From a virus (lineage: Duplodnaviria; Caudoviricetes): DNA of 54,950 nt. The notes below the pieces were generated by a model that worked only from the letters and a program-made list of their open reading frames with translations, did no database searches and had not been told where the DNA came from. The DNA is taken from IMG/VR virus record IMGVR_UViG_3300043424_000638, positions 1 to 54,950 of that record; one strand, given 5' to 3'. Both the position numbers and the translations under genes were made by a program. Below are positions 6,868-50,330 of the stretch, in pieces (positions within the stretch are counted from its first letter, which is position 1; each line of letters begins with the position of its first letter).

Positions 6868-7322
6868 TGGTGGAGGTGTCGGCTTACGATAGCCGAGTCC
6901 AATGAATTTTCATACTCTAACTCTTCACATGCTTGAGTACATTTAACATTTTAGCTACCTTACGGTAACGGAGACAATAGGTTGTCAGGTTGCACTAACC
7001 GAGTTTTATGTCTACCTATATGCGTGATTAAAGACCGCATATCACCTATGACTAATTTTACCACACTAGTCACTTCGTGCCCGAACCTCTGTCGTTCAAA
7101 GTAGATTTAGAGGATCCTCTACTAGGCTCTTAGGCTACTAGAGCGTAGTCTTCAACGCCAGCGAGGAACTCGTCAGCATTGTTGAAGATGTACTCAGCTT
7201 CAGCTAAAAGATCAGAAGTATTGTCTTCTGCGTTTAGTTTTTAATCGATTTTTAAAGAGGCCATCGATTAACCTCTGCATGCATTAAAGAATTACAACTC
7301 AATGTCGAATCCTTTCACCCCC
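6868..7322 (-). ncRNA. ssrA: tmRNA, 455 nt; tag ORF 7231-7130 = AEDNTSDLLAEAEYIFNNADEFLAGVEDYALVA*
   Basis: 5' GGGGGUGAAAGGAUUCGAC; 3' CACCUCC-A-CCA; G3.U70 Ala determinant; pk1 (AGAGG/CCUCU with UUAAUCGAU/AUCGAUUAA); UAAAC|GCA resume site; tag ends YALVA. Confidence 0.95.
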
Positions 7323-7341
7323 AATTTCAAAGAACAAATTT

Positions 7342-7443
7342 TAGCGGGTGAGAGAATCGAACTCTCCTAAAGAGGCTTAGTGAACCGTGTAATGGTTAAC
7401 ACGGCTCAATGAGACCCCCCAATTCCCAGAATTGTAACCCGCA
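7342..7443 (-). tRNA. tRNA-Met(CAU), initiator-like (U1xU72), with 30-nt insert in anticodon loop (7379-7408); CCA not encoded
   Basis: Removing the insert gives a 72-nt cloverleaf: UGCGGGU/ACCCGCU, CAAU/AUUG, GGGGU-CUCAUAA-GCCUC, GAGAG-UUCGAUU-CUCUC. Confidence 0.85.
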
Positions 7444-10545: not shown

Positions 10546-11556
10546 TTAATCCTTATAATTTCGATTGATCAATTTGAATCCCAACGGTCTACGTGATTCA
10601 AAAGAACGAGGGTAGCTCTTTGGTCTTACCACAATCCCTTCTGCATCAAGTCCACTAGAATATTTTTGCTTGTCTGCTAGTTCTTGAAGTTTGCCTAGAG
10701 GATTGGTATAAAGTTTTAATGTAGAAGAGACCTCATAATGACCTAAAAGAGGAACCACCCCACAAGAAAGTTTATTATCACAAAAGTCTTTCATGGTGTC
10801 ATAGTCCATATATTTTTCGTTTTCTTTAATTTGGAAAACAAAAATACGAACATCATTTAATTTCAGACGATTCTGTTGGATTCCGTTACCCACTAATTCT
10901 CCTTGTATAATTCCAGACCATTCAGAGGGAATTTGGAGTTTTCGAGCAGCTTTCCAGAATGTAGAATTTTCTGTTTCTTTTTTAGAAAGATTTCTTGAAC
11001 ACACTTTTTTCAATTCTCCATTTTCTACAACTAAAGTTATACTCGAACCGTCTAGTTTTTGAGTGATAGTGATAAAGGGTTCAATATTTAAAACTTTTTC
11101 GACAAGATCTGGATCATTTAAACCATTGTCTTCGTCCGTTTTAGAAATCAAATGACTTGGAAAATCTCCTTCATTTTCTCCAGAAAGATTTGCTGGAAGT
11201 TCTTTAATATATTTTTGAATACCCAAATCTTCCGTAAGATCCTTTCCAAGCTCGAAGTCCCGCAAGAAAAGAGGAAATTCGCCAATAGGCACAACTAGAC
11301 CAGAACTATACTCTCCACGAAGTTTTATATTTTTAAGTCGAATAGGTTTATCGGGATTTTTTTGATCCACTAAAAATTCAGACCATTGACAACGAGGAAC
11401 AATGGTATCAATAGTAATAAAAACTACTTTATCCCCTTCTTTATGAATACCTTTTTTAACTACAGTTTGCCATCCTAAAACTTCTGCGATCTCCAAAGAA
11501 TCCGCATTAGGGTGAACTCTTATATTTTTGATAACTTCTATAGATGCTAATTTCAT
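10546..11556 (-). CDS. RNA ligase, DRB0094/Rnl2-like family with N-terminal OB-type domain
   Basis: HPNADSLE..V.GWQ N-domain; motif I KLDGSS, IQGEL, FVFQI, EGIVVR, FKLIN. Confidence 0.9.
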   Translation of the reverse strand: MKLASIEVIKNIRVHPNADSLEIAEVLGWQTVVKKGIHKEGDKVVFITIDTIVPRCQWSEFLVDQKNPDKPIRLKNIKLRGEYSSGLVVPIGEFPLFLRDFELGKDLTEDLGIQKYIKELPANLSGENEGDFPSHLISKTDEDNGLNDPDLVEKVLNIEPFITITQKLDGSSITLVVENGELKKVCSRNLSKKETENSTFWKAARKLQIPSEWSGIIQGELVGNGIQQNRLKLNDVRIFVFQIKENEKYMDYDTMKDFCDNKLSCGVVPLLGHYEVSSTLKLYTNPLGKLQELADKQKYSSGLDAEGIVVRPKSYPRSFESRRPLGFKLINRNYKD

Positions 11557-16833: not shown

Positions 16834-17592
16834 ATGAGTAAAATGAATTATTTGATGGTCAAAAAGTGTATTATTAATAACAAAAAATATCTTTGTAAAA
16901 AAACAACCGATGACATCAAAAAAGCAATTAATTATAAAGGTTCTGGTATTATAATTAAAAGGCTAAAAAATAAATACGGTAGAGATTGTATTGTGCATGA
17001 ATCGATTCTCTGTGTGATGCCAGTTGAACAAAAAAAAGAATTTAAAGATTTTTGTTTAAAAACGTCATTAAAATTTAATGTGGTTGAAAGTGATGAGTGG
17101 TTAAATCTCGAACATGAAATGGGTGGAGGCGGTTCTACAATTTTTACAAATCATAGTAAAGGCAGAAAAGCGATTTTTAAAGGTAATGATCAAAAATGGG
17201 TTAAATTAGAAGATCTTGAAAGTTACCTAACAGATGGGTGGGTGTTGGGTATAACTCAAAAAACAAGAGAAAAATTGTCAAGAGCATTAAAAGGAATGCC
17301 TGCACACAATAAAGGCAAAAAAATGAAAAAGGATCATGAATATAAAACAAAACCTTGGGTCAAGAAAACAGAAGAAGAAAAATTTATAAACAGGAGCAAC
17401 GGTAGAAAAAAACTTTATTCTGATCCCGAGTATTTGGCAAAATTTAAAGCACCCAGAAAACCATTAATTAAAATAATAAATTCAATAGGAGAAGAATTTT
17501 TAAAATCTCGGGCTGAAATAATTAAAATGGGGTTAACATTGAGATCTTTATTGAAAGGGGGAGAATCAAAAGGGTGGAAAATTGCAAGGTGA
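16834..17592 (+). mobile_element. Seg-like GIY-YIG homing endonuclease with NUMOD DNA-binding repeats
   Basis: YLMVKK...KYLCK...YKGSG...WLNL; YLTDGWVLG and TREKLSRALKG.PAHNKG motifs; opposite strand to neighbours, own GATAAATA motif; stop overlaps tRNA-Ile 3' end. Confidence 0.8.
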
Positions 17593-17673
17593 GGGAATCG
17601 AACCCCCGCTCGGCCCACATCTAGGGCACACAGGTTATAAATCTGTCGGTACTTCCAGTTATACGAACCTTGC
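17583..17673 (-). tRNA. tRNA-Ile(UAU) with 22-nt variable arm; CCA not encoded
   Basis: GCAAGGU/ACCUUGC-A73; GUAU/GUAC D-stem; ACAGA-UUUAUAA-CCUGU; V-arm GCCC/GGGC; GGGGG-UUCGAUU-CCCUC. Confidence 0.85.
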
Positions 17674-17680
17674 ATCAAAA

Positions 17681-17965
17681 TGGTCCCATCGTCCGGGGTC
17701 GAACCGGAACTCTCCTTTCGGAAAATCGGATTTTAAGTCCGCCTACCACTATAACTTTCGTTACCATTTCTGTTTGTGGTCTGGATCATACCTTTACCTT
17801 AACTTTTACGTCTTAGGTAGGTGATTATGATCTCTACACGTCTCTCATTTAAGAGATTTCGCTCGGGGTTGGGATTTTAAACCGTTCACCGAATTTACAC
17901 CATTTAGATATAGGTTTCCCTATAAATGCACCTTTTAATGCGTCTGCCTATTCCGCCACGATGGG
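17681..17965 (-). tRNA. tRNA-Leu(UAA), split by a group I intron (exons 17965-17938 and 17741-17681)
   Basis: Spliced product: CCCAUCG/CGAUGGG-A-CCA, GCG/CGC D-stem, UCGGA-CUUAAAA-UCCGA, long V-arm, UCCGG-UUCGACC-CCGGA. Confidence 0.93.
17742..17937 (-). ncRNA. Group I self-splicing intron, 196 nt, ORF-less, inserted between tRNA positions 27 and 28
   Basis: 5' exon ends in U with P1 GCAU/GUGC (U.G); terminal G; P AAAUUCGGUGAA, Q AACCCCGAGC, R GUGUAGAGAUCAUA, S AAGGUAUGAUCC; P2 UAUAGG-GAAA-CCUAUA. Confidence 0.92.
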
Positions 17966-21640: not shown

Positions 21641-21860
21641 AAAAAAGCAGTCCTCTCCTGCTGTCACGTCTTCTTTCGGGGACGTTCCCTAGTTATGAAA
21701 ATTCGTGACCGGAGTTCCAGGTCGCTCTGTACTACTCAAGTTACGTGAGTTTTGTACAGCCCTCGATGACTCCAGTCTAGAGATTCGCAGGCCAGTTTGC
21801 AAACATTCGGCCGAGTGTCCACAATACGAATCTCTTTTCGGGTGTGATATCACACACTAA
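21641..21860 (-). ncRNA. Unidentified ~220-nt structured RNA
   Basis: GC-rich intergenic island; stems GAGAUUCGUA/UGCGAAUCUC, GACUGGAGU/ACUCCGGUC, CUGUAC/GUACAG, ACUCA/UGAGU, ACGUC/GACGU, GCAG/CUGC plus U-run. Confidence 0.7.
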
Positions 21861-21874
21861 ATTTTTAAAGATCA

Positions 21875-21926
21875 TTTCGGTTTGTATGGATAGTGTATCC
21901 ACCATCTTATGGATCACCGAAAACCA
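21875..21926 (-). ncRNA. Pseudoknot RNA motif, copy A
   Basis: GGUUU-UCGGU-GAUCC AUAAG AUGGUG-GAUA-CACUAU CCA UACAA ACCGA AA. Confidence 0.65.
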
Positions 21927-22179
21927 TTCTTAATAAATTTAATTATCCTCCATGATAGGATCTTTCTCTAAATCTTCAACTGATTTATTAATATATCCTG
22001 AAGTTAAACGAATAGTATAAAATTTTTCTTTGGGGTCATTACAATCTACAACATAACCCCTAAGACCCTCTTTAGTGACCACATAGTCACCTGCGCAAAA
22101 ATATTTTTTATCCATTTACCGCTTACAAATAAGAGCAATAAGAATCAAGATAAGAAGAAGTGTATTCAATTCCATAATA

Positions 22180-22419
22180 TTAATAATTCCAAACTTTAAC
22201 TGCGATTTGTTTATCTTTCGAACGGAGAATAACAAATTCTCCATCCCAGGATTCATTTTCAATAGCTTCGTCTATATCCAATGAAAATTTCAAAACCTTA
22301 CCAGTTTTGGGTGACTTTACCAGAAGTTCATTTGTAGCGCGAGACATATCTAAATCAGAAGCGTTAGCTACTCCGAACCCATTATTCCATTTAAATGAAG
22401 AAGCACATACTGTTTTCAT
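22180..22419 (-). CDS. Small early protein
   Basis: Start moved to MKTVC, directly after a GCGGGCT promoter. Confidence 0.6.
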   Translation of the reverse strand: MKTVCASSFKWNNGFGVANASDLDMSRATNELLVKSPKTGKVLKFSLDIDEAIENESWDGEFVILRSKDKQIAVKVWNY

Positions 22420-22629
22420 GATGTTTATATCATAGAGATTTTTTTTAAAAATAGCCCGCAAAAAATTATTTTTTGGTTATTTCTCTTAAAATACCAGCCC
22501 AATAAAACCTCCATTGTTTGGGGTTTACGCACAAACATTTAAAATGAAGAAAGGCTCTTTGGATTCGATTCATAATCTCTGTACTATCCCAGAGATTAAT
22601 ACTTATGGAAACTGATGGAAACACGTCAG

Positions 22630-22989
22630 TTACAGGTATTTAAGAAGAGTAATAGTATCTCCTGTAAACTTTTCCCATCCAAATGATTTACAAAGATAAT
22701 ATTCAGGGAGAGAAGTTCTCACTATAGGTTCTACACGAACGACATCACCAACAGACAAAGAAGGTCCTTTAAAATTCAAACTTTTAAAAAGAATTTTTTC
22801 TTCATCATTTAAACAATTTTCTGGAGCATTAGTCAAATGAAAAGCTTGCTCCGCAGCAGCTTCTCCACACAAATCACTTTTATAGGAAATACCTTCTAAA
22901 CGTTCTACCAACCAATCTTCCCTTGAATCCCAATTTCTAGATTCCCAGGGTTGTTGATAAATGGTAATAAGAGATTTATTAACTTTCAT
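22630..22989 (-). CDS. YodL-like domain protein
   Basis: SLSVGDVV...YYLCKSFGW motif. Confidence 0.6.
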   Translation of the reverse strand: MKVNKSLITIYQQPWESRNWDSREDWLVERLEGISYKSDLCGEAAAEQAFHLTNAPENCLNDEEKILFKSLNFKGPSLSVGDVVRVEPIVRTSLPEYYLCKSFGWEKFTGDTITLLKYL

Positions 22990-23040
22990 GAGAAAAATAT
23001 CTCATAAAAAAATAAAAATATCCCGCTTAAAAAATAATTT

Positions 23041-23478
23041 TTAATTAAACCTATCAGGGTTTAATCTTTGGTCTGGATTACTACCTCCAAACTCTTCTTT
23101 CTCTTCAGAATCTTCTTCAGAGTCTTCCATCATTCCCCTAAGTTCATCCCGAAGATTTTCTTTCCAATCCGGAACTTTATCAATAGTATCGAAAACCCAA
23201 TTATAGATAGCTTCAATAGCCCCCGGATTGTCACCGAAAAATTCTCTCAACCCTTGACGATAACCCAAAACTTCAATGAGATTGGTAAGGTCCTGTTCAT
23301 CGTCATAACGAACAGCAGTTTTATCCATATAAACTTCCATCAATTCATATCCATCCATTTCATCCACATCAATACTTTCTTTCATCATCTTTTTCTTAGA
23401 TGACATTTTGGATGACATTTTTGGCTTTTTAACCTTTTTATAGGCTTCTTCGAGAAGTTGCTGATCTTGAGATTTCAT
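23041..23478 (-). CDS. MKSxD-leader acidic protein
   Basis: MKSQDQQLLEEAY; start moved to follow TAAATA. Confidence 0.75.
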   Translation of the reverse strand: MKSQDQQLLEEAYKKVKKPKMSSKMSSKKKMMKESIDVDEMDGYELMEVYMDKTAVRYDDEQDLTNLIEVLGYRQGLREFFGDNPGAIEAIYNWVFDTIDKVPDWKENLRDELRGMMEDSEEDSEEKEEFGGSNPDQRLNPDRFN

Positions 23479-23660
23479 GTAAATATATTTATGGGAGAGT
23501 TGATTCAAAAATATAAAGACTCCATGGAGTATAAGAAATGGAAAGTGGCTCGATTCTTTACTCTCTATTGTGATAGCCCTACAGAACCAAGTGAAATATC
23601 TGAAGAAACCGTTTTAGAATTTGAAAAAATTTTTAGTGGTAATGTCGAAGAAAAATCAGA

Positions 23661-23900
23661 TCAGATATCTAATTGACTTTGCAGTTCTTCTAAAAAAGGA
23701 CCGTAATTGTGGGTGCCGTATTCTAATTTAAGAACAGAAGCTACAGCCCGAGCAAATTCTTTGTCATTTAAATTAGGGTTGTAAGAATCAATAGCTGAAA
23801 TCAATAAGTCTACCAACTTATGACTGTTATCTGATTCTTCTTCTTTTAAAAGAGTTTTTTGATAAGCTTCTTCTAAAAGTTGTTGGTCTTTTGATTTCAT
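23661..23900 (-). CDS. MKSxD-leader protein
   Basis: MKSKDQQLLEEAYQKTLLKE. Confidence 0.75.
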   Translation of the reverse strand: MKSKDQQLLEEAYQKTLLKEEESDNSHKLVDLLISAIDSYNPNLNDKEFARAVASVLKLEYGTHNYGPFLEELQSQLDI

Positions 23901-23910
23901 AAATTAATAT

Positions 23911-24396
23911 TTAACGAAATACTTTTAAGACTTTACAATCTTCAGTATTTTTAGCCAGTATATAACCTTTTCCTAAATTGACATAAGGACCAGTACAACC
24001 TATAGCAATAACAACCTCTCCATAACCTTTAGCATTTCTAAAATCTTTAGTGACATTAACTGATTTATCATTTTTACTGTAAGTCCAAGGCAGTGTATCT
24101 TTTACCCATTTAATAATTTGCCTATCTGTCATGCTATTAAAAGAAGAGCCTAAAACCTGTTCTAATACTTCATTGTCTTCTACAAGAGGTACATCAGAAG
24201 GAAGTACTTTACCTGTTTTTTCCATATATTCCCAATCTTCTAAAGAAACCCCTCTATAACCTATAAAGTTTGGATCATCCGTTTCATCTTTTTGGTTAAT
24301 GAGTTTATTAATACGTTCTCTTTCCTCTTTTGGAATAGGTTCTGCTTTGACTTTACGGTAAGCTTCTTCTAAGAGAACTTGGTCTTTAGACTTCAT
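23911..24396 (-). CDS. MKSxD-leader protein with ADP-ribosyltransferase-like fold
   Basis: Leader plus GYRGVS...SVNVTKD...AKGYG.VVI arrangement. Confidence 0.55.
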   Translation of the reverse strand: MKSKDQVLLEEAYRKVKAEPIPKEERERINKLINQKDETDDPNFIGYRGVSLEDWEYMEKTGKVLPSDVPLVEDNEVLEQVLGSSFNSMTDRQIIKWVKDTLPWTYSKNDKSVNVTKDFRNAKGYGEVVIAIGCTGPYVNLGKGYILAKNTEDCKVLKVFR

Positions 24397-24405
24397 GGGG
24401 ATTAA

Positions 24406-24852
24406 TTAAAGATCTTTAATGGCTGTTTTGTACCAACCCTGAAGTACTGAGTTATCTTTATTCTTTTCTACATCCTTTAAAAGATCAACAATATATTTCG
24501 CATTACTACTAGAAAGATCATCATCACCTACTTTTTTACCATCAATAACAATTTCAAAACCATCATATTGATTCATGCGATAGTCAATCTTTTTGTCTTG
24601 AAATTTAGAAGGATCTATTTCTACTTTAGGGGTTTGTGAAACATAAGAAGTGTAGGGTTCTCTGGAGAGTTCTTCATCGTTCTCTAAACCCGCATTACGT
24701 TCTTGGTTACGAAATTCTCTTTCTTGAGCTTTAATGGAAGCCAAAGAAGGTTCCCGAGAAGGTTTCCAACGAGTTTCTGGATTAGCGTGAGGATGGGCTT
24801 CGTTGACTTTGAGGTAGGCTTGCTCTAAGAGGATTTGATCTTTAGACTTCAT
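24406..24852 (-). CDS. MKSxD-leader protein
   Basis: MKSKDQILLEQAYLKVNE; TAAATA upstream. Confidence 0.75.
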   Translation of the reverse strand: MKSKDQILLEQAYLKVNEAHPHANPETRWKPSREPSLASIKAQEREFRNQERNAGLENDEELSREPYTSYVSQTPKVEIDPSKFQDKKIDYRMNQYDGFEIVIDGKKVGDDDLSSSNAKYIVDLLKDVEKNKDNSVLQGWYKTAIKDL

Positions 24853-25045
24853 ATATTCTTTATTTATTTCAATCTTCTATTTTATTAAAAGATCTTCGAT
24901 TATAGTCTTTAATAGACCGATGCTTTCGGGGAGAAGGAAGAGTAGGTTTCCGAAGAGACTTCAGAAGTTCGTATTGGGATTTAATTTTCAGTTTCATAAC
25001 AAATAAAAGAATAGACGAATTTACCTGTTATGTCCCGCGTAAAGA

Positions 25046-25456
25046 TTAATCTTTAGGGAAAAAATGCTTCAAAGCTTTATCTCTCCCAGCTTCAATACTT
25101 TTTTGTCTTTCTTCTTGAGCGGACTTAGGAACAGAAACTTTATCATCTGTTTTATCCAAAAAGAGTTTACCGTTCTTAGACACTACTTTACGAGCACTGT
25201 CAGGGTACATTTTATCAATAACATACATTCCTTCTTGAACGGGTTTATCGGAATCTACGGAATTACCATCCGAATCTAAAACATAGAACTTACCTAAAAA
25301 GAAACTCTTATAAAGATTTCCTGCTACTCCTTTAGTCCAATAATAATTTCCTGTAAATTTAGGATTAGGAGTTTCATCAAATCCTAATTGAAGTAAAGAG
25401 GGTTCCGAGGTTACTTCTTCTAAAAGACGAGAGTAAAGAGAGTTAAAAGAACTCAT
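25046..25456 (-). CDS. MxSF-leader protein
   Basis: MSSFNSLYSRLLEE. Confidence 0.7.
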   Translation of the reverse strand: MSSFNSLYSRLLEEVTSEPSLLQLGFDETPNPKFTGNYYWTKGVAGNLYKSFFLGKFYVLDSDGNSVDSDKPVQEGMYVIDKMYPDSARKVVSKNGKLFLDKTDDKVSVPKSAQEERQKSIEAGRDKALKHFFPKD

Positions 25457-25459
25457 AAT

Positions 25460-25825
25460 TTAAAAAGGAATTAAAGCGATATGAGTAAAGTCTTGAGGAG
25501 TATCAAAAACATAATAGTCATGACCCGAAGTGTCTGGATAGTTATTGCCTACTGCGGTTCCTTTGGCTTGTATTTGCTTTTGCAAAGAAGGATCTAAATT
25601 GGTTTGATTTAAAAATCTCTTAATAGAGTCTTCATTTTTAAAAGCTACATGAGAGGTTTTAAAACGATTTCCTCCTTCTACTTTACGTTTAAGATTAGGA
25701 ACATCCAATCCTTCTAAGAACATAACGTCTTCAGGACGACCAGAAAAATAACTAAATTCTTGATCGCTAGTTACATTCATGCGCTCATAAGCTTGTTCTA
25801 AAAGGATTTGATCTTGGGATTTCAT
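25460..25825 (-). CDS. MKSxD-leader protein
   Basis: MKSQDQILLEQAY; TAAGTA upstream. Confidence 0.75.
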   Translation of the reverse strand: MKSQDQILLEQAYERMNVTSDQEFSYFSGRPEDVMFLEGLDVPNLKRKVEGGNRFKTSHVAFKNEDSIKRFLNQTNLDPSLQKQIQAKGTAVGNNYPDTSGHDYYVFDTPQDFTHIALIPF

Positions 25826-25863
25826 ATATAGTTTTACTTATCTTAAAGTGGTGGACGGTTAAA

Positions 25864-25948
25864 TTGGTAAGATGAGATTCGAACTCATTATTCCATTTAG
25901 GAGACGGTTTTACAGACCGTTGCGACACTCCAACTTCGCCGCTTACCA
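25864..25948 (-). tRNA. tRNA-Tyr(GUA), U1-A72 and C8; CCA not encoded
   Basis: UGGUAAG/CUUACCA-A; GCGA/UCGC; ACGGU-CUGUAAA-ACCGU; long V-arm; AUGAG-UUCGAAU-CUCAU. Confidence 0.9.
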
Positions 25949-25974
25949 GTATTATACTAGTCCAATTAAAAAAT

Positions 25975-26060
25975 TGGCTCCTCGTCTTGGACTTGAACCA
26001 AGAGTGCCTTTCGGCTCCCGGTTAACAGCCGGGTGTATTTACCAATTCTACTAACGAGGA
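25975..26060 (-). tRNA. tRNA-Asn(GUU) with class-II-like long variable arm
   Basis: UCCUCGU/ACGAGGA-G-CCA; CCCGG-CUGUUAA-CCGGG; V region A-GCC-GAAA-GGC-ACU; CUUGG-UUCAAGU-CCAAG. Confidence 0.92.
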
Positions 26061-26077
26061 ATTTCCTTACAAAGATC

Positions 26078-26131
26078 TTTCCGATTTTGTATTCGTAAGT
26101 CGTCACCTACCTATAGGTTCATCGGGAACCT
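26078..26131 (-). ncRNA. Pseudoknot RNA motif, copy B
   Basis: GGUUC-CCGAU-GAACC UAUAG GUAGGU-GACG-ACUUAC GAA UACAAA AUCGG AAA. Confidence 0.7.
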
Positions 26132-26520
26132 ATTACCTTAATGAACTTTATTTATTCCTCTTCTATTTCTTCGCCAGAAAAAATGGAAGAAAGTTCTTGA
26201 TTAGAAAGAATCCAAGAAGAAATCTCTTCCGAGCAAACTTCTTTTAGTTTATCTAGAGTATCCCCACTCCAACTCTTACCACAACGATACTCCAAAACAA
26301 TCTCTTGAGCTTCGGGACTAGAAAGTTCTGCCAAAGGCATTTCCTCGAGCCAAAACCAACTTAATGCTTGTTCGTCTACTTTATTCATATAATTTTACTT
26401 GTTACGAAAACCTACTTTAATTCCTTTACGAGTTACCTTAAAATAGATGGATTTATTCATGGAGTAAAATATCTAATAGATTTACCAAAACGTCAAGAAA
26501 AAAATTAATAAATAAATTAA

Positions 26521-27342
26521 ATGTCTCTATTAAACATTAAAAGTGGTCGAGTTGTTTTCAAAGATAAAACCAAATTCACAACCTCTTCTGTATATTCTTA
26601 TGATTCGGATGCATTAAATTATATTGCTTCTGTAGAAACAGCAGATGGTCAAACCTTAGAAGAACCTGTTAAAATAGCTTATAACGATTTTATTGTGGGT
26701 TGTAAAGATGATGGTATTTGGAATGCTCTCAAAGCTTCTTGTATTCTAGCTGGAGCCAGGACTTTGAATGGAGCTTTGATTCCTTTAGTTGGAACAGCAC
26801 CTAGTAGTTTCAACTTTGTTTCTGCTGATTATAACAGAAAAACGGGCTTAAAAGGTAATGGTACTAACAAAAGACTCAATACCAATCGGAGAACTAACAC
26901 AGACCCACAAAATTCTAAACATACTTCCATATACGTTACAGAAAGAGAAACTAGTACATCTAAAACTTATATGGGAGGAAGTGATGTTTCTGGCTCTACT
27001 ATAATTAGGTTGGGTACTACTAGTAATGGTGTTGGTTTTAGAATAAATTCTTCTTCTCGATTAAACCTAGCAAACGGAAACGTAAATAACGCCTTTTTAG
27101 GGGCTAGTAGATCCAATGCCACTCAAATTACTTTTCTTGTGCCAGGATTTACTGCTTTTGCCATCTCCAATTCTTCTGCTACTCCAACTAATGAAGCTTT
27201 ACAAGTGTTTAGTTCTGGAACTTCTACCGCATTTTCAATAGCTCGAATTTCCTTTTATTCTATTGGAGAAGCTTTAGATCTAGACAAACTAAACACCAGA
27301 GTCTCCGCTCTTATGACATCTATTAACGGAGCTATCGCTTAA
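26521..27342 (+). CDS. Putative virion structural protein (beta-rich)
   Basis: YI..VE.ADG..LE...F..GCK.DGIW..LKASCILAGARTL.GAL phage family; TAAATA upstream. Confidence 0.65.
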   Translation: MSLLNIKSGRVVFKDKTKFTTSSVYSYDSDALNYIASVETADGQTLEEPVKIAYNDFIVGCKDDGIWNALKASCILAGARTLNGALIPLVGTAPSSFNFVSADYNRKTGLKGNGTNKRLNTNRRTNTDPQNSKHTSIYVTERETSTSKTYMGGSDVSGSTIIRLGTTSNGVGFRINSSSRLNLANGNVNNAFLGASRSNATQITFLVPGFTAFAISNSSATPTNEALQVFSSGTSTAFSIARISFYSIGEALDLDKLNTRVSALMTSINGAIA

Positions 27343-27346
27343 TTTT

Positions 27347-27655
27347 ATGAACTTACAAGAACTCATTCTTCAAAATAAATCCTATGAGGAACTTCAAAGT
27401 CTCGTTTTAATCTTTAATTCTTCTTTAAAAGACATTTTAGAAACTACACAAGAAACTTTTAATAGTCAACATAAAGTGTCTCCGATAGAATTAACCGATG
27501 GTCGTTATATGCTCTGTGCAGACTTGTTGACAGAAATTGGACCTGGAGGACTCTATTCTCAAGGTTTTGGTCTTTTAGATACGGATCTCTTTTCTCAGGT
27601 AGAAGTAGTCTCTCTGGAAGAAATCTCTTCTTTACTTCCATCAACAGAAGAATAA
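27347..27655 (+). CDS. Partner of preceding structural gene
   Basis: P..LTDGRYMLCADLLTE motif; tightly coupled. Confidence 0.6.
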   Translation: MNLQELILQNKSYEELQSLVLIFNSSLKDILETTQETFNSQHKVSPIELTDGRYMLCADLLTEIGPGGLYSQGFGLLDTDLFSQVEVVSLEEISSLLPSTEE

Positions 27656-27661
27656 GATAAA

Positions 27662-28045
27662 TTAATCTTCTTGAAAATAGGCATGGATTACCGGAGTTTC
27701 ATCTTGTCTCCACTTCATCCAAGCTTGAGCAATATTCTTAGGATCATTCCACCAAGCTCTTAAAGGAATCGATTGCCAATGACTATCCCAGACCCAAAGT
27801 TGATTCTTTCCTGGGGGATAAAGATAAGCACAAGTGGCATGACCCCAGTTTGGAGTTTGAATAGAAAGAACTTTAGCTTGTATTCCGCTCTGACGTAAGG
27901 ATTGAGCTACTACAATAGCTTCTGGTAAACAAGCTTTTCTAAAGGATCCAGCCCACTCCGGAACTCCTACAGGTGGGGTTGAAGTACAACCTGCTAAAAA
28001 GAGCCCTAAACAAACACAGAACTTTAATAAAGATTTACTTAACAA
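27662..28045 (-). CDS. Lipoprotein with transglutaminase/papain-like Cys-His-Asp triad
   Basis: Lipobox LAGC; ACLPEA...GHATC...VWD. Confidence 0.65.
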   Translation of the reverse strand: MLSKSLLKFCVCLGLFLAGCTSTPPVGVPEWAGSFRKACLPEAIVVAQSLRQSGIQAKVLSIQTPNWGHATCAYLYPPGKNQLWVWDSHWQSIPLRAWWNDPKNIAQAWMKWRQDETPVIHAYFQED

Positions 28046-28049
28046 TTTT

Positions 28050-28307
28050 TTAATCAGTTAAATTTTCGTCGAGTAAGTCTTGAACGTGCTTACCGAATTG
28101 AAGGCGTAAGAATCGAAGAACAGCAACTTCATGATGTTCATCTCGGTAATTGGGAATCCTTTTTAAAATAAAAGATAAACCAGCTTGTACAGCTTTATCG
28201 ATCTTTTCTTTTTCTTGAGGGTCTAGTTTAATTGGAATAATCTCTGAAGTAGAACTATTAATATTTTTATAAGCTTCTTCTAATAATTGCTGATCCTTGG
28301 ACTTCAT
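28050..28307 (-). CDS. MKSxD-leader protein
   Basis: MKSKDQQLLEEAY; TAAATA upstream. Confidence 0.75.
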   Translation of the reverse strand: MKSKDQQLLEEAYKNINSSTSEIIPIKLDPQEKEKIDKAVQAGLSFILKRIPNYRDEHHEVAVLRFLRLQFGKHVQDLLDENLTD

Positions 28308-29315
28308 ATTATTTTATTTAATCAAATAAGGTCTTTGGAAAAAGTGAGCCCCCAAAGATCTCCTCTGATCTTAATTCCTCTAAAGATTACATTTTGAGTC
28401 TTTTGATCCCGAACATAAAAGGAATCTTCTTGAATTTCAATAAGATGTTTAATTCTTTGAGCTTCTTGTAAAAGAGTCTTAGTAGAGGTATTAGAACAAA
28501 GTTTAACTACGGTATCCTCCATAAAGAACTAAAGGCGTTCTGTTTGAATGTCTTGAATAACTTCCCAAAGAAGAGTGTCTTTAATGTCTTTGAGGTTTTT
28601 ATAGTCTTTAACATTATGATGTCTTCCTCCGTCTTTCATGTTAAAGGCATAAGAATGCATTATAGTCTCTTCACAAGTCATAGGGTCATAATGCTTAGAA
28701 CAGCCATTGTCTCCGGTGAGTTCATAAAGAATATCTTGAAGAGCAGCGGCATAGCCTTCTAGGTAACGTTGTTCGTCTTTCTTGAGGGTTTTCATTCTTT
28801 GGCCTCTTGAAGGATTTCTAACATATTTACACAGATAGAAGCATCGGAACCGTCTTCAAAGAAAGCCGTCTTAGCTCTTCGAATAACTTTAAAAAGCTTA
28901 TCGTATACTCGTTCTAACTTACGAGTATAATCAAATAGTATATCTAACTTAACATCATCGGATAAGGTATTTCTCTTAAACTCTTCCGTTAATCGATCGG
29001 TCTCTAGGGAATCACTCATAAGATTAAAGCCCAATATCGATTCCGAACATCATTAGGATTCCTTTAAGGATAGCTCCAGCTAATCCAATCATACAGACTC
29101 CAAATAAAATCCGAAGCAAAACCATCCATCCCATAACACAGTCTGTTACTTGTTCTTCGTGAGTATATTTGTCTTTCATAAAATCAATATTAGATAAAAA
29201 TATAAAATAGGGCAACCTAAAAGGAAAAGAAAAGCTCCTTATTCTAATACCCTTTTATTTCGGAGCAGACCTGCTTATCTTTAAATACGAGTTTCTCAAG
29301 GGTACAGGTCGATCT

Positions 29316-29579
29316 TTAATTATCTGTCTTTTCACAGATACCATTCAGACAATCGCAAAGAGCTTCTCTCAAAGGGGCTCCAACTACAATCAAAGCTTTG
29401 TGTCTAGACTGCTCTTCGATATGTTGAAGAACCTCTTTAGCCTTTAAGAGTTCTTCTTCTAGTTCTTTATTAATATTATGGAGGTCTGCTACTTGAGCTT
29501 GAAGTACTTCGCAGTCCTAAAACCACTCTTTAATAAGCCTCGAGTTCTCTTCTTTAAATTTCTGAATCTGTTCATCCAT
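29316..29579 (-). pseudogene. Coiled-coil ORF interrupted by one in-frame TAG (29517-29519)
   Basis: MDEQIQKFKEENSRLIKEWF*DCEVLQAQVADLHNINKELEEELL...EKTDN* in a single frame. Confidence 0.6.
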
Positions 29580-29617
29580 TAAAGTAAAGTCTAAATTAAA
29601 TTCAAAGTCTGTATCGC

Positions 29618-29932
29618 TCATTTGTTTGATTTCTTTTGATCTTCTTCTGCAATCCTTTTAAGAACCATTGTAACATAATACTCTGGATGAGACTTGTAAT
29701 GCTGAAACAAAGTCACAAAACGGTTGTATTCTTCTACCCATCTATCGCTGTGTGGATCTAATACATGCATCCTCTCTTCTCTAAAGTGAACACTATCATG
29801 CATGGCTTGGTATGTAGCATCCAGCCTTGCAAGGACTTCTGACCTAAAGTCTTGTGGCAGAGTGTCATCATTCTTAAACATCTCCCAGATCTGTTCACGG
29901 GTGTATCGCCTTTCTTCTTGTTTGTCTTTCAT
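29618..29932 (-). CDS. Hypothetical protein, paralog of the C-terminal half of 52481..53005
   Basis: EMFKND.TL...F.SE.L.RLDATYQAM...DRW.EE.NRFV in both. Confidence 0.7.
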   Translation of the reverse strand: MKDKQEERRYTREQIWEMFKNDDTLPQDFRSEVLARLDATYQAMHDSVHFREERMHVLDPHSDRWVEEYNRFVTLFQHYKSHPEYYVTMVLKRIAEEDQKKSNK

Positions 29933-31997
29933 ATTATTGAGCTGCCTCCAAGTAGATATAAGTAGTCTTATTAAGCTTTCGAAGAATAGCAATTCTGTCC
30001 TTAATCATCTTGCGGAGGATAGGGCTACGTCGTGCTGACCAGCTGTCACAGATAGCAATACGTAGAGCAGTTCCAATGGAGATATGTTCGTTAAGAGTTA
30101 GTTTTTCCATAGTTTTTAAATACGATATGTTATTGAACCCCCAAACCTTGATACTTGAGCATAGAATTAGTCAAGTAACGTTGAATTTGTTCTAGGGTCT
30201 CTAGAGGTTTAATGTCTAGATAGATCTTTCTTTTATCTAGTTCTTTAATATCCGAAGAAGAAGTTAGATCCCAGATAGCTTGTTTCAAAGAAACAGAACA
30301 AGGAATATTCATGAGGTTATTATAGTGTTCCCAGAAGATAGAGTGTATAGAGGTTTTCATAAGAATTAATGAGACTTAGTTAGAGTATAGAGAATAATCA
30401 AAGCAATAAGAGCTCCCAAGACATTAAAGAAGACAGAATGGCAAAAGAAGGTCATAATCAAAAGAACTCCAATAGAAAGTCCTTGAATAGCTCCTACAAA
30501 GAATTCTGGTATTTTCATAAGATTAATGAGCCTTTGCCATCTCGTAAGCCGTATCTACCCCTACTCCTAAGTTCTCTAATTGAGCCACGGTCTTAGAACA
30601 CTTCGCTAACTTCTTATAGGTACTCTTGAGTCCGAGAGGGGCATTTTTGGCTTCTTGAAGTTGGAGAGCCAAGGTCTTGATCAGGTGATTGATTAGGGTT
30701 TGTTTGGTTTCCATGATTAAAAGAATAGAGATTTTGTTTTAAAATAGCCACTCTTTAATGAATTTTAATGATATAGGGGTATTCTTGATACCACCAATTT
30801 AAAACCTTATTTCCCTTTACGGTGACCTGATAGGTCTTACCTACTTCCAATTGACTATAGACTTCATCGCTATTAAACATCTGAAAAGGAATCAAACGAT
30901 TCTGAACTTCCAGGACTCCTTGATCGGTTCCTACCATATAGTGAGAAGAACTTCCGGAATCTACATAGAGCCTTTGAACTTGGATGACCATTTCCTTTTC
31001 CGGCCCGAATCCCTGAACTCCGAAGGTATAGTTTAAACCGATAACAATTCCTACAATTAAAAGAACCGGAGTCAAAGTAGAAACCGAAGCTACCAAGACC
31101 GGATGATCCACAGCCCAATCAAAAAACCTATCGATGAGAGTGGAGAGTGTGGAGAGTGAGAGTTTGTTATTTTTCATATAAGAGAGATATTAGAGATTTT
31201 GTTTTAAAATAGCACTCCAAAAAGAAATTAATTTTCCTTTTGATTAGCCAAATAAAAGGCAATAACCAAAGCTCCAAAGACAATCAGAACCGCGAGACTA
31301 GCTCCATTAAGGAACATTCCCGAGAAGATCTTACCAAGGACTGAAACTACAATATAAAGGTTTTCCATAACAGTTATCAGAATAGGGATTTTGTTTTAAA
31401 ATAACACTCTTTATTTTTAAGAAAATTTAAAGGATTCCTAGGTTCCAACAATAGTGATTAATGTCTTTAGTAGACATTCCCAGATCATTTAATTGACCCC
31501 AGATCTCATCGATCTCTGCTTGATAACTATCATATTCGTATCCTCCCTCTTGAGAAAGGTTCTGAAGCTTGATGGTCTCTACTAAGGTTTCCAGTAAGGT
31601 TTCTTTATTTTTCATAAGAGAATTAAATGAATTGTTTAGCGAGAAAAGCCGCTTTGAGGTTCTGATACCAGGTCGGGTTCTTCTCTTTGAGAATCTCTAA
31701 CGGAGCTTTCCGCTGAGAATAATCCTCGTGTTCTAGGGTCTGAAGATAGTCTTCGACATAATGATTAGCGATGAGTTCTTTCTTGAATGCAGCCATCGTC
31801 ACGGGACCTTTATGCTTAAAACGAGCCAAGAAGGTTCCGATAGGCCAACGACCTTGAGGGTCATTCAGGAACAGGTAAACGCCGGATTTCTCGAACATCT
31901 CTTTAGTGAATGGTGTTTTCATCATGGATCTATATTGGTCTATTTCTTAAAAAAGGTCCCGCCTAAAAGAAAAAAAAAAGATTAAATAAAAGAAAGT

Positions 31998-32216
31998 ATG
32001 AATAAATTTGATCGTCTCGTGAGTGAAATGATGGGTTCTGAAGCTTCTGAAACAGATGTTATTAGAAGTATTCGTCAAGACCTTACAGATTGTTCTTCTA
32101 ACCTAGATAATTTCGCTAGTCAATTTGAAGGATCTAGTCCCAAGGCTATGGCTATTCGTCAAGCTATGATGAAGGTAGACGCAGCTCGTGATATCCTTTT
32201 TAAACTTCAAGACTAA
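31998..32216 (+). CDS. MNKFD-leader protein on opposite strand within early block
   Basis: MNKFDRLVSEMMGSE; TAAATA upstream. Confidence 0.7.
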   Translation: MNKFDRLVSEMMGSEASETDVIRSIRQDLTDCSSNLDNFASQFEGSSPKAMAIRQAMMKVDAARDILFKLQD

Positions 32217-32292
32217 TAGGACCCGAGTAGAATCCTTAAAAAGACAACAAAACGCGTTTTAATCGCGTATAGGATAGCAAGAATCCTAGGAG

Positions 32293-32348
32293 TTTCCGAT
32301 TTTGTAAACGACCAGGTTTACCCAGTCCTAAAGGCTCATCGGGAACCT
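32293..32348 (-). ncRNA. Pseudoknot RNA motif, copy C
   Basis: GGUUC-CCGAU-GAGCC UUUAG GACUGGG-UAAA-CCUGGUC GUU UACAAA AUCGG AAA. Confidence 0.7.
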
Positions 32349-32358
32349 TCTCTAAGAA

Positions 32359-49202: not shown

Positions 49203-49253
49203 TAAAATTTTTGTTCTGGCTTTTTAAAAATTATTCGAGATAATTTTTCTTTG

Positions 49254-50330
49254 ATGAAAGTATCATTAGAAAATCAAGTAGGATTCAAATCTTATCCTCA
49301 TAAGTTTTGTGGATTAGATTCTCATTTGATTATTCCAGAAATAGATGCCGAGTGGAATCAAGACAACCTACACCTTCGTTCTTTGATTGTGGATTTAGAA
49401 GGAAAGGTTTTAAGTTCCGGTTGGCCTAAATTCTTTAACTATCTCGAGAAACCCAATTGTTATCCTGATCCTTTAAATTATTCGGATTGGAGAATCAAAC
49501 AAAAATTAGACGGTTCTTTAGTCATTTGCGACTTTGTTAATGAGGAATTTAATATGAGAACTAGAGGTACTGCTTCTCATATGTTTCAAGCTAATTGGAA
49601 AGACTTTGAATTGCTTCCGAAAAAATATCCTAAAGTCGTAGAATTTTTAAAGAACAATAATTTTAGTTTATTGTTTGAAATTGTTACTCCTAATAATGTT
49701 ATTGTAATTCGACCGAAGGAAATAGAATTTTATTTTCTAGGAGTCATAAACAAAGACACATTAAAAGTTTTATCTGAAGAAGAGTCTTTAGAGGTTTGGA
49801 GAAAAATTGGACAACCTCCTACTCCTACTCAATACCAATTTGATAGTATTAAGGATTTAGTAAAACTATCCGAACATATTAAAAATTGGAAAGGAGAGGA
49901 AGGTATTGTTGTTTCTTATAACAATGGTCAAAATAGAATTAAAATGAAATCCGATTGGTATTGTTGGGTTCATGCTATTAAGTCTCAATTGAATTCAGAA
50001 AATAATTTGATAGAATACTATGTAAATTCTCATATGCCTTCTTCTGATGAATTCTTCAAAAAGATAGAGACAGAATTTGATTTTGAAATTGCTACTCAAT
50101 TAAAAGAACAAATAGAAAAAATTTCTGAGACAGGAGAAAAAGTAAAACATTCTATTCAGGTCATGAAAGATTTTATTAACGACATTAGACGTTTTGAAAC
50201 TCGTAAACAAAAAGCAGAATGTATTCTGAGATCTTTTAATGATCGTGCTTCTTTTGTTTTTTCTTTACTTGACGGAAAAGAATTAACTTCTGTACAATTA
50301 ATCAAACTCATGCAACTCCATAATACCTAA
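49254..50330 (+). CDS. RNA ligase, T4 Rnl1-like
   Basis: RSL, WPKFFN, KLDGSL, LFE, EEGIVV, KMKSDWY. Confidence 0.88.
   Translation: MKVSLENQVGFKSYPHKFCGLDSHLIIPEIDAEWNQDNLHLRSLIVDLEGKVLSSGWPKFFNYLEKPNCYPDPLNYSDWRIKQKLDGSLVICDFVNEEFNMRTRGTASHMFQANWKDFELLPKKYPKVVEFLKNNNFSLLFEIVTPNNVIVIRPKEIEFYFLGVINKDTLKVLSEEESLEVWRKIGQPPTPTQYQFDSIKDLVKLSEHIKNWKGEEGIVVSYNNGQNRIKMKSDWYCWVHAIKSQLNSENNLIEYYVNSHMPSSDEFFKKIETEFDFEIATQLKEQIEKISETGEKVKHSIQVMKDFINDIRRFETRKQKAECILRSFNDRASFVFSLLDGKELTSVQLIKLMQLHNT

Follow-up and report, generated by a model that had tools for sequence, protein, structure and literature searches.

A covarying pseudoknot RNA that leads into non-coding RNA genes of uncultured T4-like phages

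The window analysed here, the complete 54,950-base IMG/VR virus record IMGVR_UViG_3300043424_000638, carries on its minus strand three copies of a short RNA element that recurs in related phages, folds as an H-type pseudoknot and leads into genes for transfer RNAs (tRNAs), transfer-messenger RNA (tmRNA) and other non-coding RNAs (ncRNAs). The structure and the leader position can be stated with high confidence. The function that we favour, as a possibility somewhat short of probable, is that of an antitermination or Nus-loading leader resembling those of rrn operons and lambda nut sites, which would make RNA polymerase resist termination in phage stable-RNA operons.

The pseudoknot, its covariation and its distribution

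An earlier reading of the window, made from its letters without database searches (the sequence-only reading), had proposed three copies of a pseudoknotted, covarying RNA on the minus strand. The pattern GGTTY-N5-GANCC-N15-35-ACAAA matched that strand exactly three times, at 21881-21925, 26086-26130 and 32301-32347 and in the places proposed, against a chance expectation of 0.01 in the window; three matches were reached in 0/100 shuffles. In all three copies the 5-nt loop of the first helix (P1) was fully complementary to 5 nt at or after the ACAAA, the loop/tail alleles being CCGAT/ATCGG in two copies and TCGGT/ACCGA in one, and a further hairpin had a different sequence in each copy with its pairing kept in all three. 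The copies and their parts are given below with the scores of R1, a covariance model built from 22 distinct copies.

21877..21927, minus strand: copy 1 (model R1, 47.2 bits, E 7e-12)
21927-21921 with 21915-21909, minus strand: copy 1, P1
21920-21916, minus strand: copy 1, loop TCGGT, pairing with ACCGA at 21881-21877
21901-21887, minus strand: copy 1, hairpin
26081..26133, minus strand: copy 2 (model R1, 66 bits, E 2e-17)
26133-26126 with 26120-26113, minus strand: copy 2, P1
26125-26121, minus strand: copy 2, loop CCGAT, pairing with ATCGG at 26085-26081
26110-26095, minus strand: copy 2, hairpin
32296..32350, minus strand: copy 3 (model R1, 75.7 bits, E 3e-20)
32350-32343 with 32337-32330, minus strand: copy 3, P1
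32342-32338, minus strand: copy 3, loop CCGAT, pairing with ATCGG at 32300-32296
32327-32310, minus strand: copy 3, hairpin

The core of the element is an H-type pseudoknot in which the helix junction has no loop nucleotides to spare and the third strand is A-rich: the whole 5-nt P1 loop (CCGAT) pairs with the ATCGG that lies right behind the A-rich stretch. The covariation proposed from three copies extends to an alignment of 62 distinct sequences, which was guided by the covariance model and includes 4-5 doubtful rows from GC-rich contexts. Standard pairs filled 93.4% of cells in this model-fitted alignment compared with 83.7% in shuffles, none of which (0/500) was as high, and pairing fell to 16-59% when the partners were slid by 1-3 columns. 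A smaller set of 26 sequences, independent of the metagenome pattern described below and likewise fitted to the model, gave 94.2% versus 84.1%. On a plain MAFFT alignment, RNAalifold predicted the long-range helix and the hairpin unaided.

The three helices differ in how they vary. The pseudoknot helix is paired in 99.7% of cells, and two-sided changes affect two of its five pairs: U-A replaces C-G in 8 sequences, and G-C replaces A-U in 4. Its loop and tail are CCGAT/ATCGG in 52/62 sequences, and the other alleles, TCGGT/ACCGA and TCGAT/ATCGA, are fully compensatory; the metagenome pattern confined loop and tail to Y/R classes, so that other alleles cannot show there, and within this limit U-A was found 8 times and C-A once. 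The hairpin is paired in 95.4% of cells and 6/7 of its pairs change on both sides, with many G-U pairs (at two positions in 18 and 12 of 62 sequences, read on the minus strand), which fix the strand of the RNA. For P1 the figure is 87.5% over seven pairs, the two outer ones switching among UA, GC, AU and CG, and in the third pair from the loop a U stands opposite G, A, U or C. P1 had been described as five pairs followed by a WWWAG linker. It is in fact 7-8 bp long with covarying outer pairs, part of WWWAG is its 3' strand, and although the helix is present as proposed, the third pair from the loop is mismatched in about half of the sequences. Similarly, the TACAAA that is invariant within the window becomes NACAAA or a plain A-run in relatives, and the hairpin keeps its pairing but is an optional insert, missing from mini copies of about 38 nt. 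The P1 of these mini copies has only 5 bp, and for this reason a tRNA mimic, in which a 7+5 bp stack would stand for the acceptor and T arms, was dropped. In a variant found in 12 stretches the hairpin is placed after the pseudoknot instead; the element as a whole measures 38-60 nt.

At the gathering threshold Rfam 15 reported only the tmRNA and tRNAs in the window and nothing on the motif, and at E values up to 10 the motif stayed unmatched both in the window and in three related loci (L195, L221 and L222), where the other hits were tRNA, tmRNA or at chance level. Pattern scans of IMG/VR recovered further copies. The first gave 44 stretches, 4 of them (two distinct sequences) true copies. The second, in which the loop, the 3' strand of P1 and the tail were fixed and the 5' strand of P1 was left free, gave 28 stretches with 22 distinct sequences; GGTTC, though not required, was correctly placed in 18 of these sequences (23 stretches) and the other 4 (5 stretches) were chance matches. 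With loop and tail left free, a scan for the hairpin form returned 54 distinct sequences, of which 12 were true and all CCGAT/ATCGG, two more being fully complementary only at another offset and lacking the hairpin, and 6/9 stretches returned for the mini form were true; the true copies from both of these scans all have complementary loop and tail. The TCGGT allele was matched in 3 stretches, 2 of them by chance in coding-like sequence. A metagenome scan yielded 92 stretches with 51 distinct sequences, about 45 of them true as judged by their flanks. Model R1 found 27 full-length copies across all 24 related records, together with 4 shorter copies of about 38 nt, and these 24 virus contigs belong to T4-like phages of about 200 kb.

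Cellular genome contigs gave no match to the first pattern and three to the second, two of which were GC-rich chance matches; the sole true copy lies on a 4-kb contig that is binned in a Chitinophagales metagenome-assembled genome and looks phage-derived. Among 50,697 GenBank phage records no relevant match was obtained by megablast of 12 kb or by blastn of the 95-nt module, the latter search being insensitive, and model R1 found no copy in the cultured cyanomyoviruses S-CRM01, S-WAM2 and S-RIM50 (best E 0.43). No such element is described in the portions of the literature covered by our searches (cyanophage tmRNA and tRNA, cyanophage pseudoknots and noncoding RNA, boxA antitermination), and an earlier description elsewhere is possible. 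The element qualifies as a clean candidate new RNA family.

The completeness of the window is estimated at 25%, and it is therefore derived from a phage of about 200 kb. It encodes T4-type functions, for example RNA ligases and tail fibre proteins, and a 767-amino-acid (aa) virion protein with 68% identity, over 52% of its length, to Synechococcus myovirus proteins. As psbA was not found in five related records, one of them 99% complete, a cyanobacterial host is not established despite this identity. Two genes of the RNA-ligase family (10546-11556, minus strand, PHROG 968; 49251-50330, plus strand, PHROG 562) occur in this same phage, which has many unusual tRNA genes.

Promoters, U-rich elements and RNA genes around the element

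The window copies occupy junctions at which a small open reading frame (ORF) gives way to non-coding RNA. Each has an ORF of 49-78 aa upstream, the stop codon of which lies 8-18 nt before the start of the copy; the sequence-only reading had correctly placed the copies just 3' of a stop, with a spacing of 10-20 nt. None of the small ORFs preceding the three copies matched PHROG, and the neighbouring ORFs gave no informative PHROG or Pfam family. Across the wider set, a near-consensus sigma-70 promoter, defined as at least 10/12 positions of TTGACA-16/18-TATAAT ending 8-26 nt upstream of the GGTT, was present in 41/87 distinct contexts (15/29 in the first set), and this spacing puts the pseudoknot at the very start of the transcript. 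Certain other copies are internal to arrays and stand right behind a tRNA.

A U-rich element resembling boxA, roughly G-W-T-N-T-T-T-G/A-A, usually lies 4-9 nt downstream of the pseudoknot. Its strict core, T-N-T-Y-T-D-A, was found within 30 nt downstream in 52/87 contexts, 35 of them at offset 7, and in many of the remaining contexts the element takes the form GTTCTCT or GTTCTTG or is preceded by a hairpin. In the window, GATCTTT(A/G) follows copies 1 and 2 and is itself followed by stable or untranslated RNA, just as had been proposed, namely tRNA-Asn with tRNA-Tyr after copy 2 and a stretch of about 220 nt after copy 1. A second boxA-like element stands directly before the tmRNA. By eye, an alternative hairpin could be drawn between the A-run/ATC and the boxA-like element in some copies only, and it is not conserved. 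The downstream features of the window are:

21862..21873, minus strand: boxA-like element after copy 1, GATCTTTAAAAA
21646..21861, minus strand: untranslated stretch of about 220 nt 3' of copy 1, a candidate ncRNA without Rfam family
21662-21646, minus strand: terminator-like hairpin and T-run closing that stretch
26065..26077, minus strand: boxA-like element after copy 2, GATCTTTGTAAGG, 4 nt upstream of tRNA-Asn
25864..26060, minus strand: tRNA-Asn(GTT) and tRNA-Tyr(GTA), the stable RNAs headed by copy 2
32240..32292, minus strand: 3' of copy 3, a small hairpin followed by one that resembles an intrinsic terminator (32268-32252) and has a T-rich tail
7323..7337, minus strand: further boxA-like element, TTGTTCTTTGAAATT, without pseudoknot, directly 5' of the tmRNA gene
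6868-7322, minus strand: one-piece phage tmRNA (Rfam 15, 103.5 bits)

The same-strand genes downstream of the element are non-coding throughout and comprise tRNA arrays, tmRNA and RNAs without Rfam match. In most related loci tmRNA and tRNAs follow on the same strand, the tmRNA 300-1000 nt downstream and, in the 99%-complete relative G001, directly adjacent. No homologue of the 220-nt stretch (21646-21861, minus strand) was seen among the related loci compared. Terminator-like hairpins occur inside the operon of locus L195 (4 versus 0.8 expected). As judged from predicted features, the location is that of a boxA/Nus leader, after a promoter and ahead of untranslated genes.

Several of the RNA genes are unusual in their own right. 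A tRNA-like gene at 7342-7441 (minus strand), directly upstream of the tmRNA and not called by ARAGORN, consists of two halves that match the contiguous tRNA of many relatives and here lie about 29 nt apart, right after the CAT anticodon; a short insertion or something like an intron may account for the interruption. The three tRNAs called at 17582-17674, 25864-25948 and 25975-26060 (minus strand) are unusually long (85-93 nt) through inserts in the variable region, and include tRNA-Asn and tRNA-Ile(TAT), for which short variable arms are the rule. Just upstream of the tRNA-Ile, at 17680-17760 (minus strand), there is a tRNA-like 3' half that ends in CCA. Among the relatives, tmRNAs have long tags ending in ALAA-type motifs, and a 118-nt tRNA match at L195 1880-1997 (plus strand) suggests a tRNA gene with an intervening sequence. 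Two conserved RNAs without Rfam family recur: one of about 130 nt (L048 1575-1740, L195 2011-2150), found directly after the leader or just before the tmRNA, and one of about 100 nt after the leader in several relatives (L195 1586-1670; L230), with a long-range stem and then a T-run. At L054 1400-1480 (minus strand), 3' of the second copy of G001, three occurrences of the 12-mer TTGTCTTACAAT fall within 80 nt, one of them within an inverted arrangement; the 12-mer may be an operator.

Antitermination and competing explanations

Among the functions that the sequence-only reading had offered, an antiterminator suits the context best and a processing element is a live rival, while a ribozyme is unlikely and a toxin decoy finds no support. 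Antitermination fits best because the element lies after a promoter or at a coding-to-non-coding junction, because a boxA-like element adjoins it and because only structured, untranslated RNA genes follow. We infer both factor binding and antitermination. The pseudoknot would be a cis-acting leader module of phage non-coding ('stable') RNA transcription units, in which P1 (7-8 bp) would stack on the 5-bp helix where the whole P1 loop pairs with the 5 nt after the A-rich strand, with the free-sequence hairpin optionally inserted in the long loop. Shortly after host RNA polymerase has left an early sigma-70 promoter, or as it exits a small ORF, the nascent RNA would fold into the pseudoknot and the boxA-like element might recruit host NusB-S10 and other Nus factors; alternatively, the pseudoknot may contact the polymerase or an unnamed phage factor. 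The resulting complex, like those of rrn and lambda nut, would resist termination and pausing and so take the polymerase through the hairpin-rich untranslated tRNA, tmRNA and ncRNA genes.

The likeness to rrn leaders and lambda nut lies in a structured RNA beside a U-rich boxA-like element, after a promoter and ahead of a long untranslated structured RNA. The further boxA-like element inside the phage operon also has its counterpart, as rrn operons possess a second boxA. The phage element differs in being a sequence-conserved pseudoknot rather than a simple hairpin and in the nature of its downstream genes (tRNA, tmRNA and ncRNAs), its boxA match is partial, and Nus binding is putative. HK022 put and Bacillus EAR, processive antiterminators that consist of RNA alone or are centred on RNA, are likewise promoter-proximal, cis-acting folded RNAs, and put is phage-borne, but neither resembles the phage element in sequence or structure, put being two stem-loops, and the phage element, at 38-60 nt, is far shorter and has a boxA-like element coupled to it.

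After copy 1, GATCTTTAAAAA agrees with 10/11 positions of GYTCTTTAANA, the boxA consensus of gamma-proteobacteria (PMC5725501). The 'antitermination box A' of a picocyanobacterial spacer is the target of primer CTATGCAGTTGTCAAGGTTC, whose complement contains CCTTGACAA (PMC9769826); the latter resembles the TTTGACA of the main class of phage elements. It is reported that boxA alone nucleates the rrn antitermination complex, that this complex also counters intrinsic termination and that boxA is found ahead of CRISPR operons as well (PMC13753749).

Several observations weigh against antitermination. Consensus position 4 (C), which is reported to be mutated in a loss-of-function E. coli boxA allele (PMC5725501), is A or T in many phage copies. 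The short boxA-like pattern is not enriched genome-wide in five records (forward plus reverse versus a backwards control: 5 vs 5, 38 vs 27, 16 vs 7, 21 vs 15 and 14 vs 13), so that its meaning rests only on its fixed place beside the pseudoknot. The TTGACA in the U-rich element can also be read as a -35 hexamer, and one promoter-like match (10/12) uses it. The three window copies have no convincing promoter (7-9/12 positions), and promoter-like sites in their region are not above shuffles. To our knowledge, no such pseudoknot occurs among the antitermination RNAs described (boxB, put). Homologues of NusB or NusG were not found in five phage records, nor was any partner protein. In the control genome of Synechococcus elongatus, NusB and NusG were matched and Rho was not; a cyanobacterial host, if that is the host, would probably be without Rho, and the benefit would then be confined to intrinsic terminators, pausing and RNA folding. 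Finally, in the single metatranscriptome run inspected, 0.08 of the sampled words were present and the contigs covered none of the three window sites, and the run is therefore uninformative on transcription, ends and strand.

The closest competitor, less probable than antitermination yet far from negligible, is that the element acts as a 5' stabiliser or as processing punctuation. As a stabiliser, a rigid pseudoknot located at the 5' end or close to it would keep 5'-end-dependent RNases (RNase E, RNase J) away from the precursor; as punctuation, it would combine with the A/U-rich element, plausibly a site of the RNase E type, to mark a cut between messenger RNA and stable-RNA precursor. The position about 10-25 nt from a predicted transcript start in 41/87 contexts, the window copies lying exactly at ORF-to-ncRNA junctions, and the A/U-rich elements of the same type directly before the mature 5' ends of tmRNA and tRNAs all agree with this, RNase E sites being typically A/U-rich single strands beside structures. 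However, a plain 5' hairpin would suffice for protection, certain copies are internal and follow a tRNA, and the retention of CCGAT/ATCGG in most sequences suggests specific recognition rather than mere protection. A riboswitch-like or protein-binding aptamer that tunes the output of the tRNA/tmRNA operon to a small molecule or to a phage or host protein seems to us unlikely. The core is minimal (38 nt) and highly conserved, P1 has an invariant U opposite a variable base, and the tRNA-Asn and tRNA-Tyr downstream of copy 2 are queuosine tRNAs. The preQ1-I and SAM-II riboswitches are also H-type pseudoknots (34-55 nt) in which an A-rich 3' strand can occupy the groove of P1. The phage element nevertheless lacks what these have: no riboswitch family matched at E values up to 10, nearly all nucleotides lie in a helix or in the A-run with none left in a loop at the helix junction, and there is no conserved expression platform, neither a terminator nor a ribosome-binding site overlapping the 3' strand. 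Nor are the downstream genes those of one pathway, being RNAs of many kinds, and specifically for preQ1-I neither a match to the family model nor a link to queuosine genes or to a sequestered ribosome-binding site was found.

The remaining explanations are less probable still. We consider it very unlikely that the element works in trans as a decoy, for instance by mimicking a type III antitoxin (ToxI-like) and so neutralising an abortive-infection toxin of the host. The pseudoknotted repeats of type III antitoxins are similar in size to the 38-nt mini form, and the element is phage-borne and behind strong early promoters, but its copies are single, dispersed and kilobases apart rather than in tandem, a U-rich element and RNA genes always accompany them in cis, and cellular genomes yielded the one phage-like copy. 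Tandem repeats next to a toxin gene, as expected of a type III antitoxin, were not seen, toxin families not having been specifically searched. Self-cleavage by a small ribozyme that trims the 5' leader is hardly to be expected, although the P1 loop is fully used in the pseudoknot as in pistol and the strand order resembles an HDV-like fold without P3. Pistol has in common with the element a 5-bp hairpin, a whole loop in the pseudoknot and then an A-containing linker; its pseudoknot 3' strand lies between P2 and P3, and HDV has P3/L3 and a catalytic C. The order of elements here is unlike that of pistol, the conserved core is missing, as is the P3/L3 of HDV, and no ribozyme family matched at E values up to 10. 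The mini form is almost all helix and A-run, and the sole candidate catalytic C, that of ACAAA, is replaced by A in mini copies, which makes a ribozyme unlikely. An equally improbable case is that of a DNA-level signal (an operator, part of a promoter or a replication origin). The element does adjoin promoters and has TTGACA within the element downstream, but the frequent G-U pairs on the minus strand, and pairing kept through two-sided changes where the sequence is free, argue that RNA is what is conserved.

Significance for phage stable-RNA operons

A broader form of the favoured antitermination reading, which is more doubtful than that reading itself, is that the pseudoknot, alone in the manner of put or with the boxA-like tract, defines a new class of phage RNA that sets RNA polymerase to a 'stable-RNA mode' for phage tRNA, tmRNA and ncRNA operons. 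If true, T4-like phages, and non-ribosomal stable RNAs as well, would thereby gain their first described system of the antitermination type. As far as we know, the expression of tRNA arrays, tmRNAs and small RNAs by large phages has been little studied, and here a short RNA element supported by covariation marks the start of stable-RNA operons in a widespread group of uncultured phages. Should the element be a leader for antitermination or Nus loading, phage stable RNAs would come under boxA-type control, with a new RNA fold involved. Whatever its function, the element is a practical marker for phage non-coding RNA operons, several of which hold further ncRNAs lacking an Rfam match.

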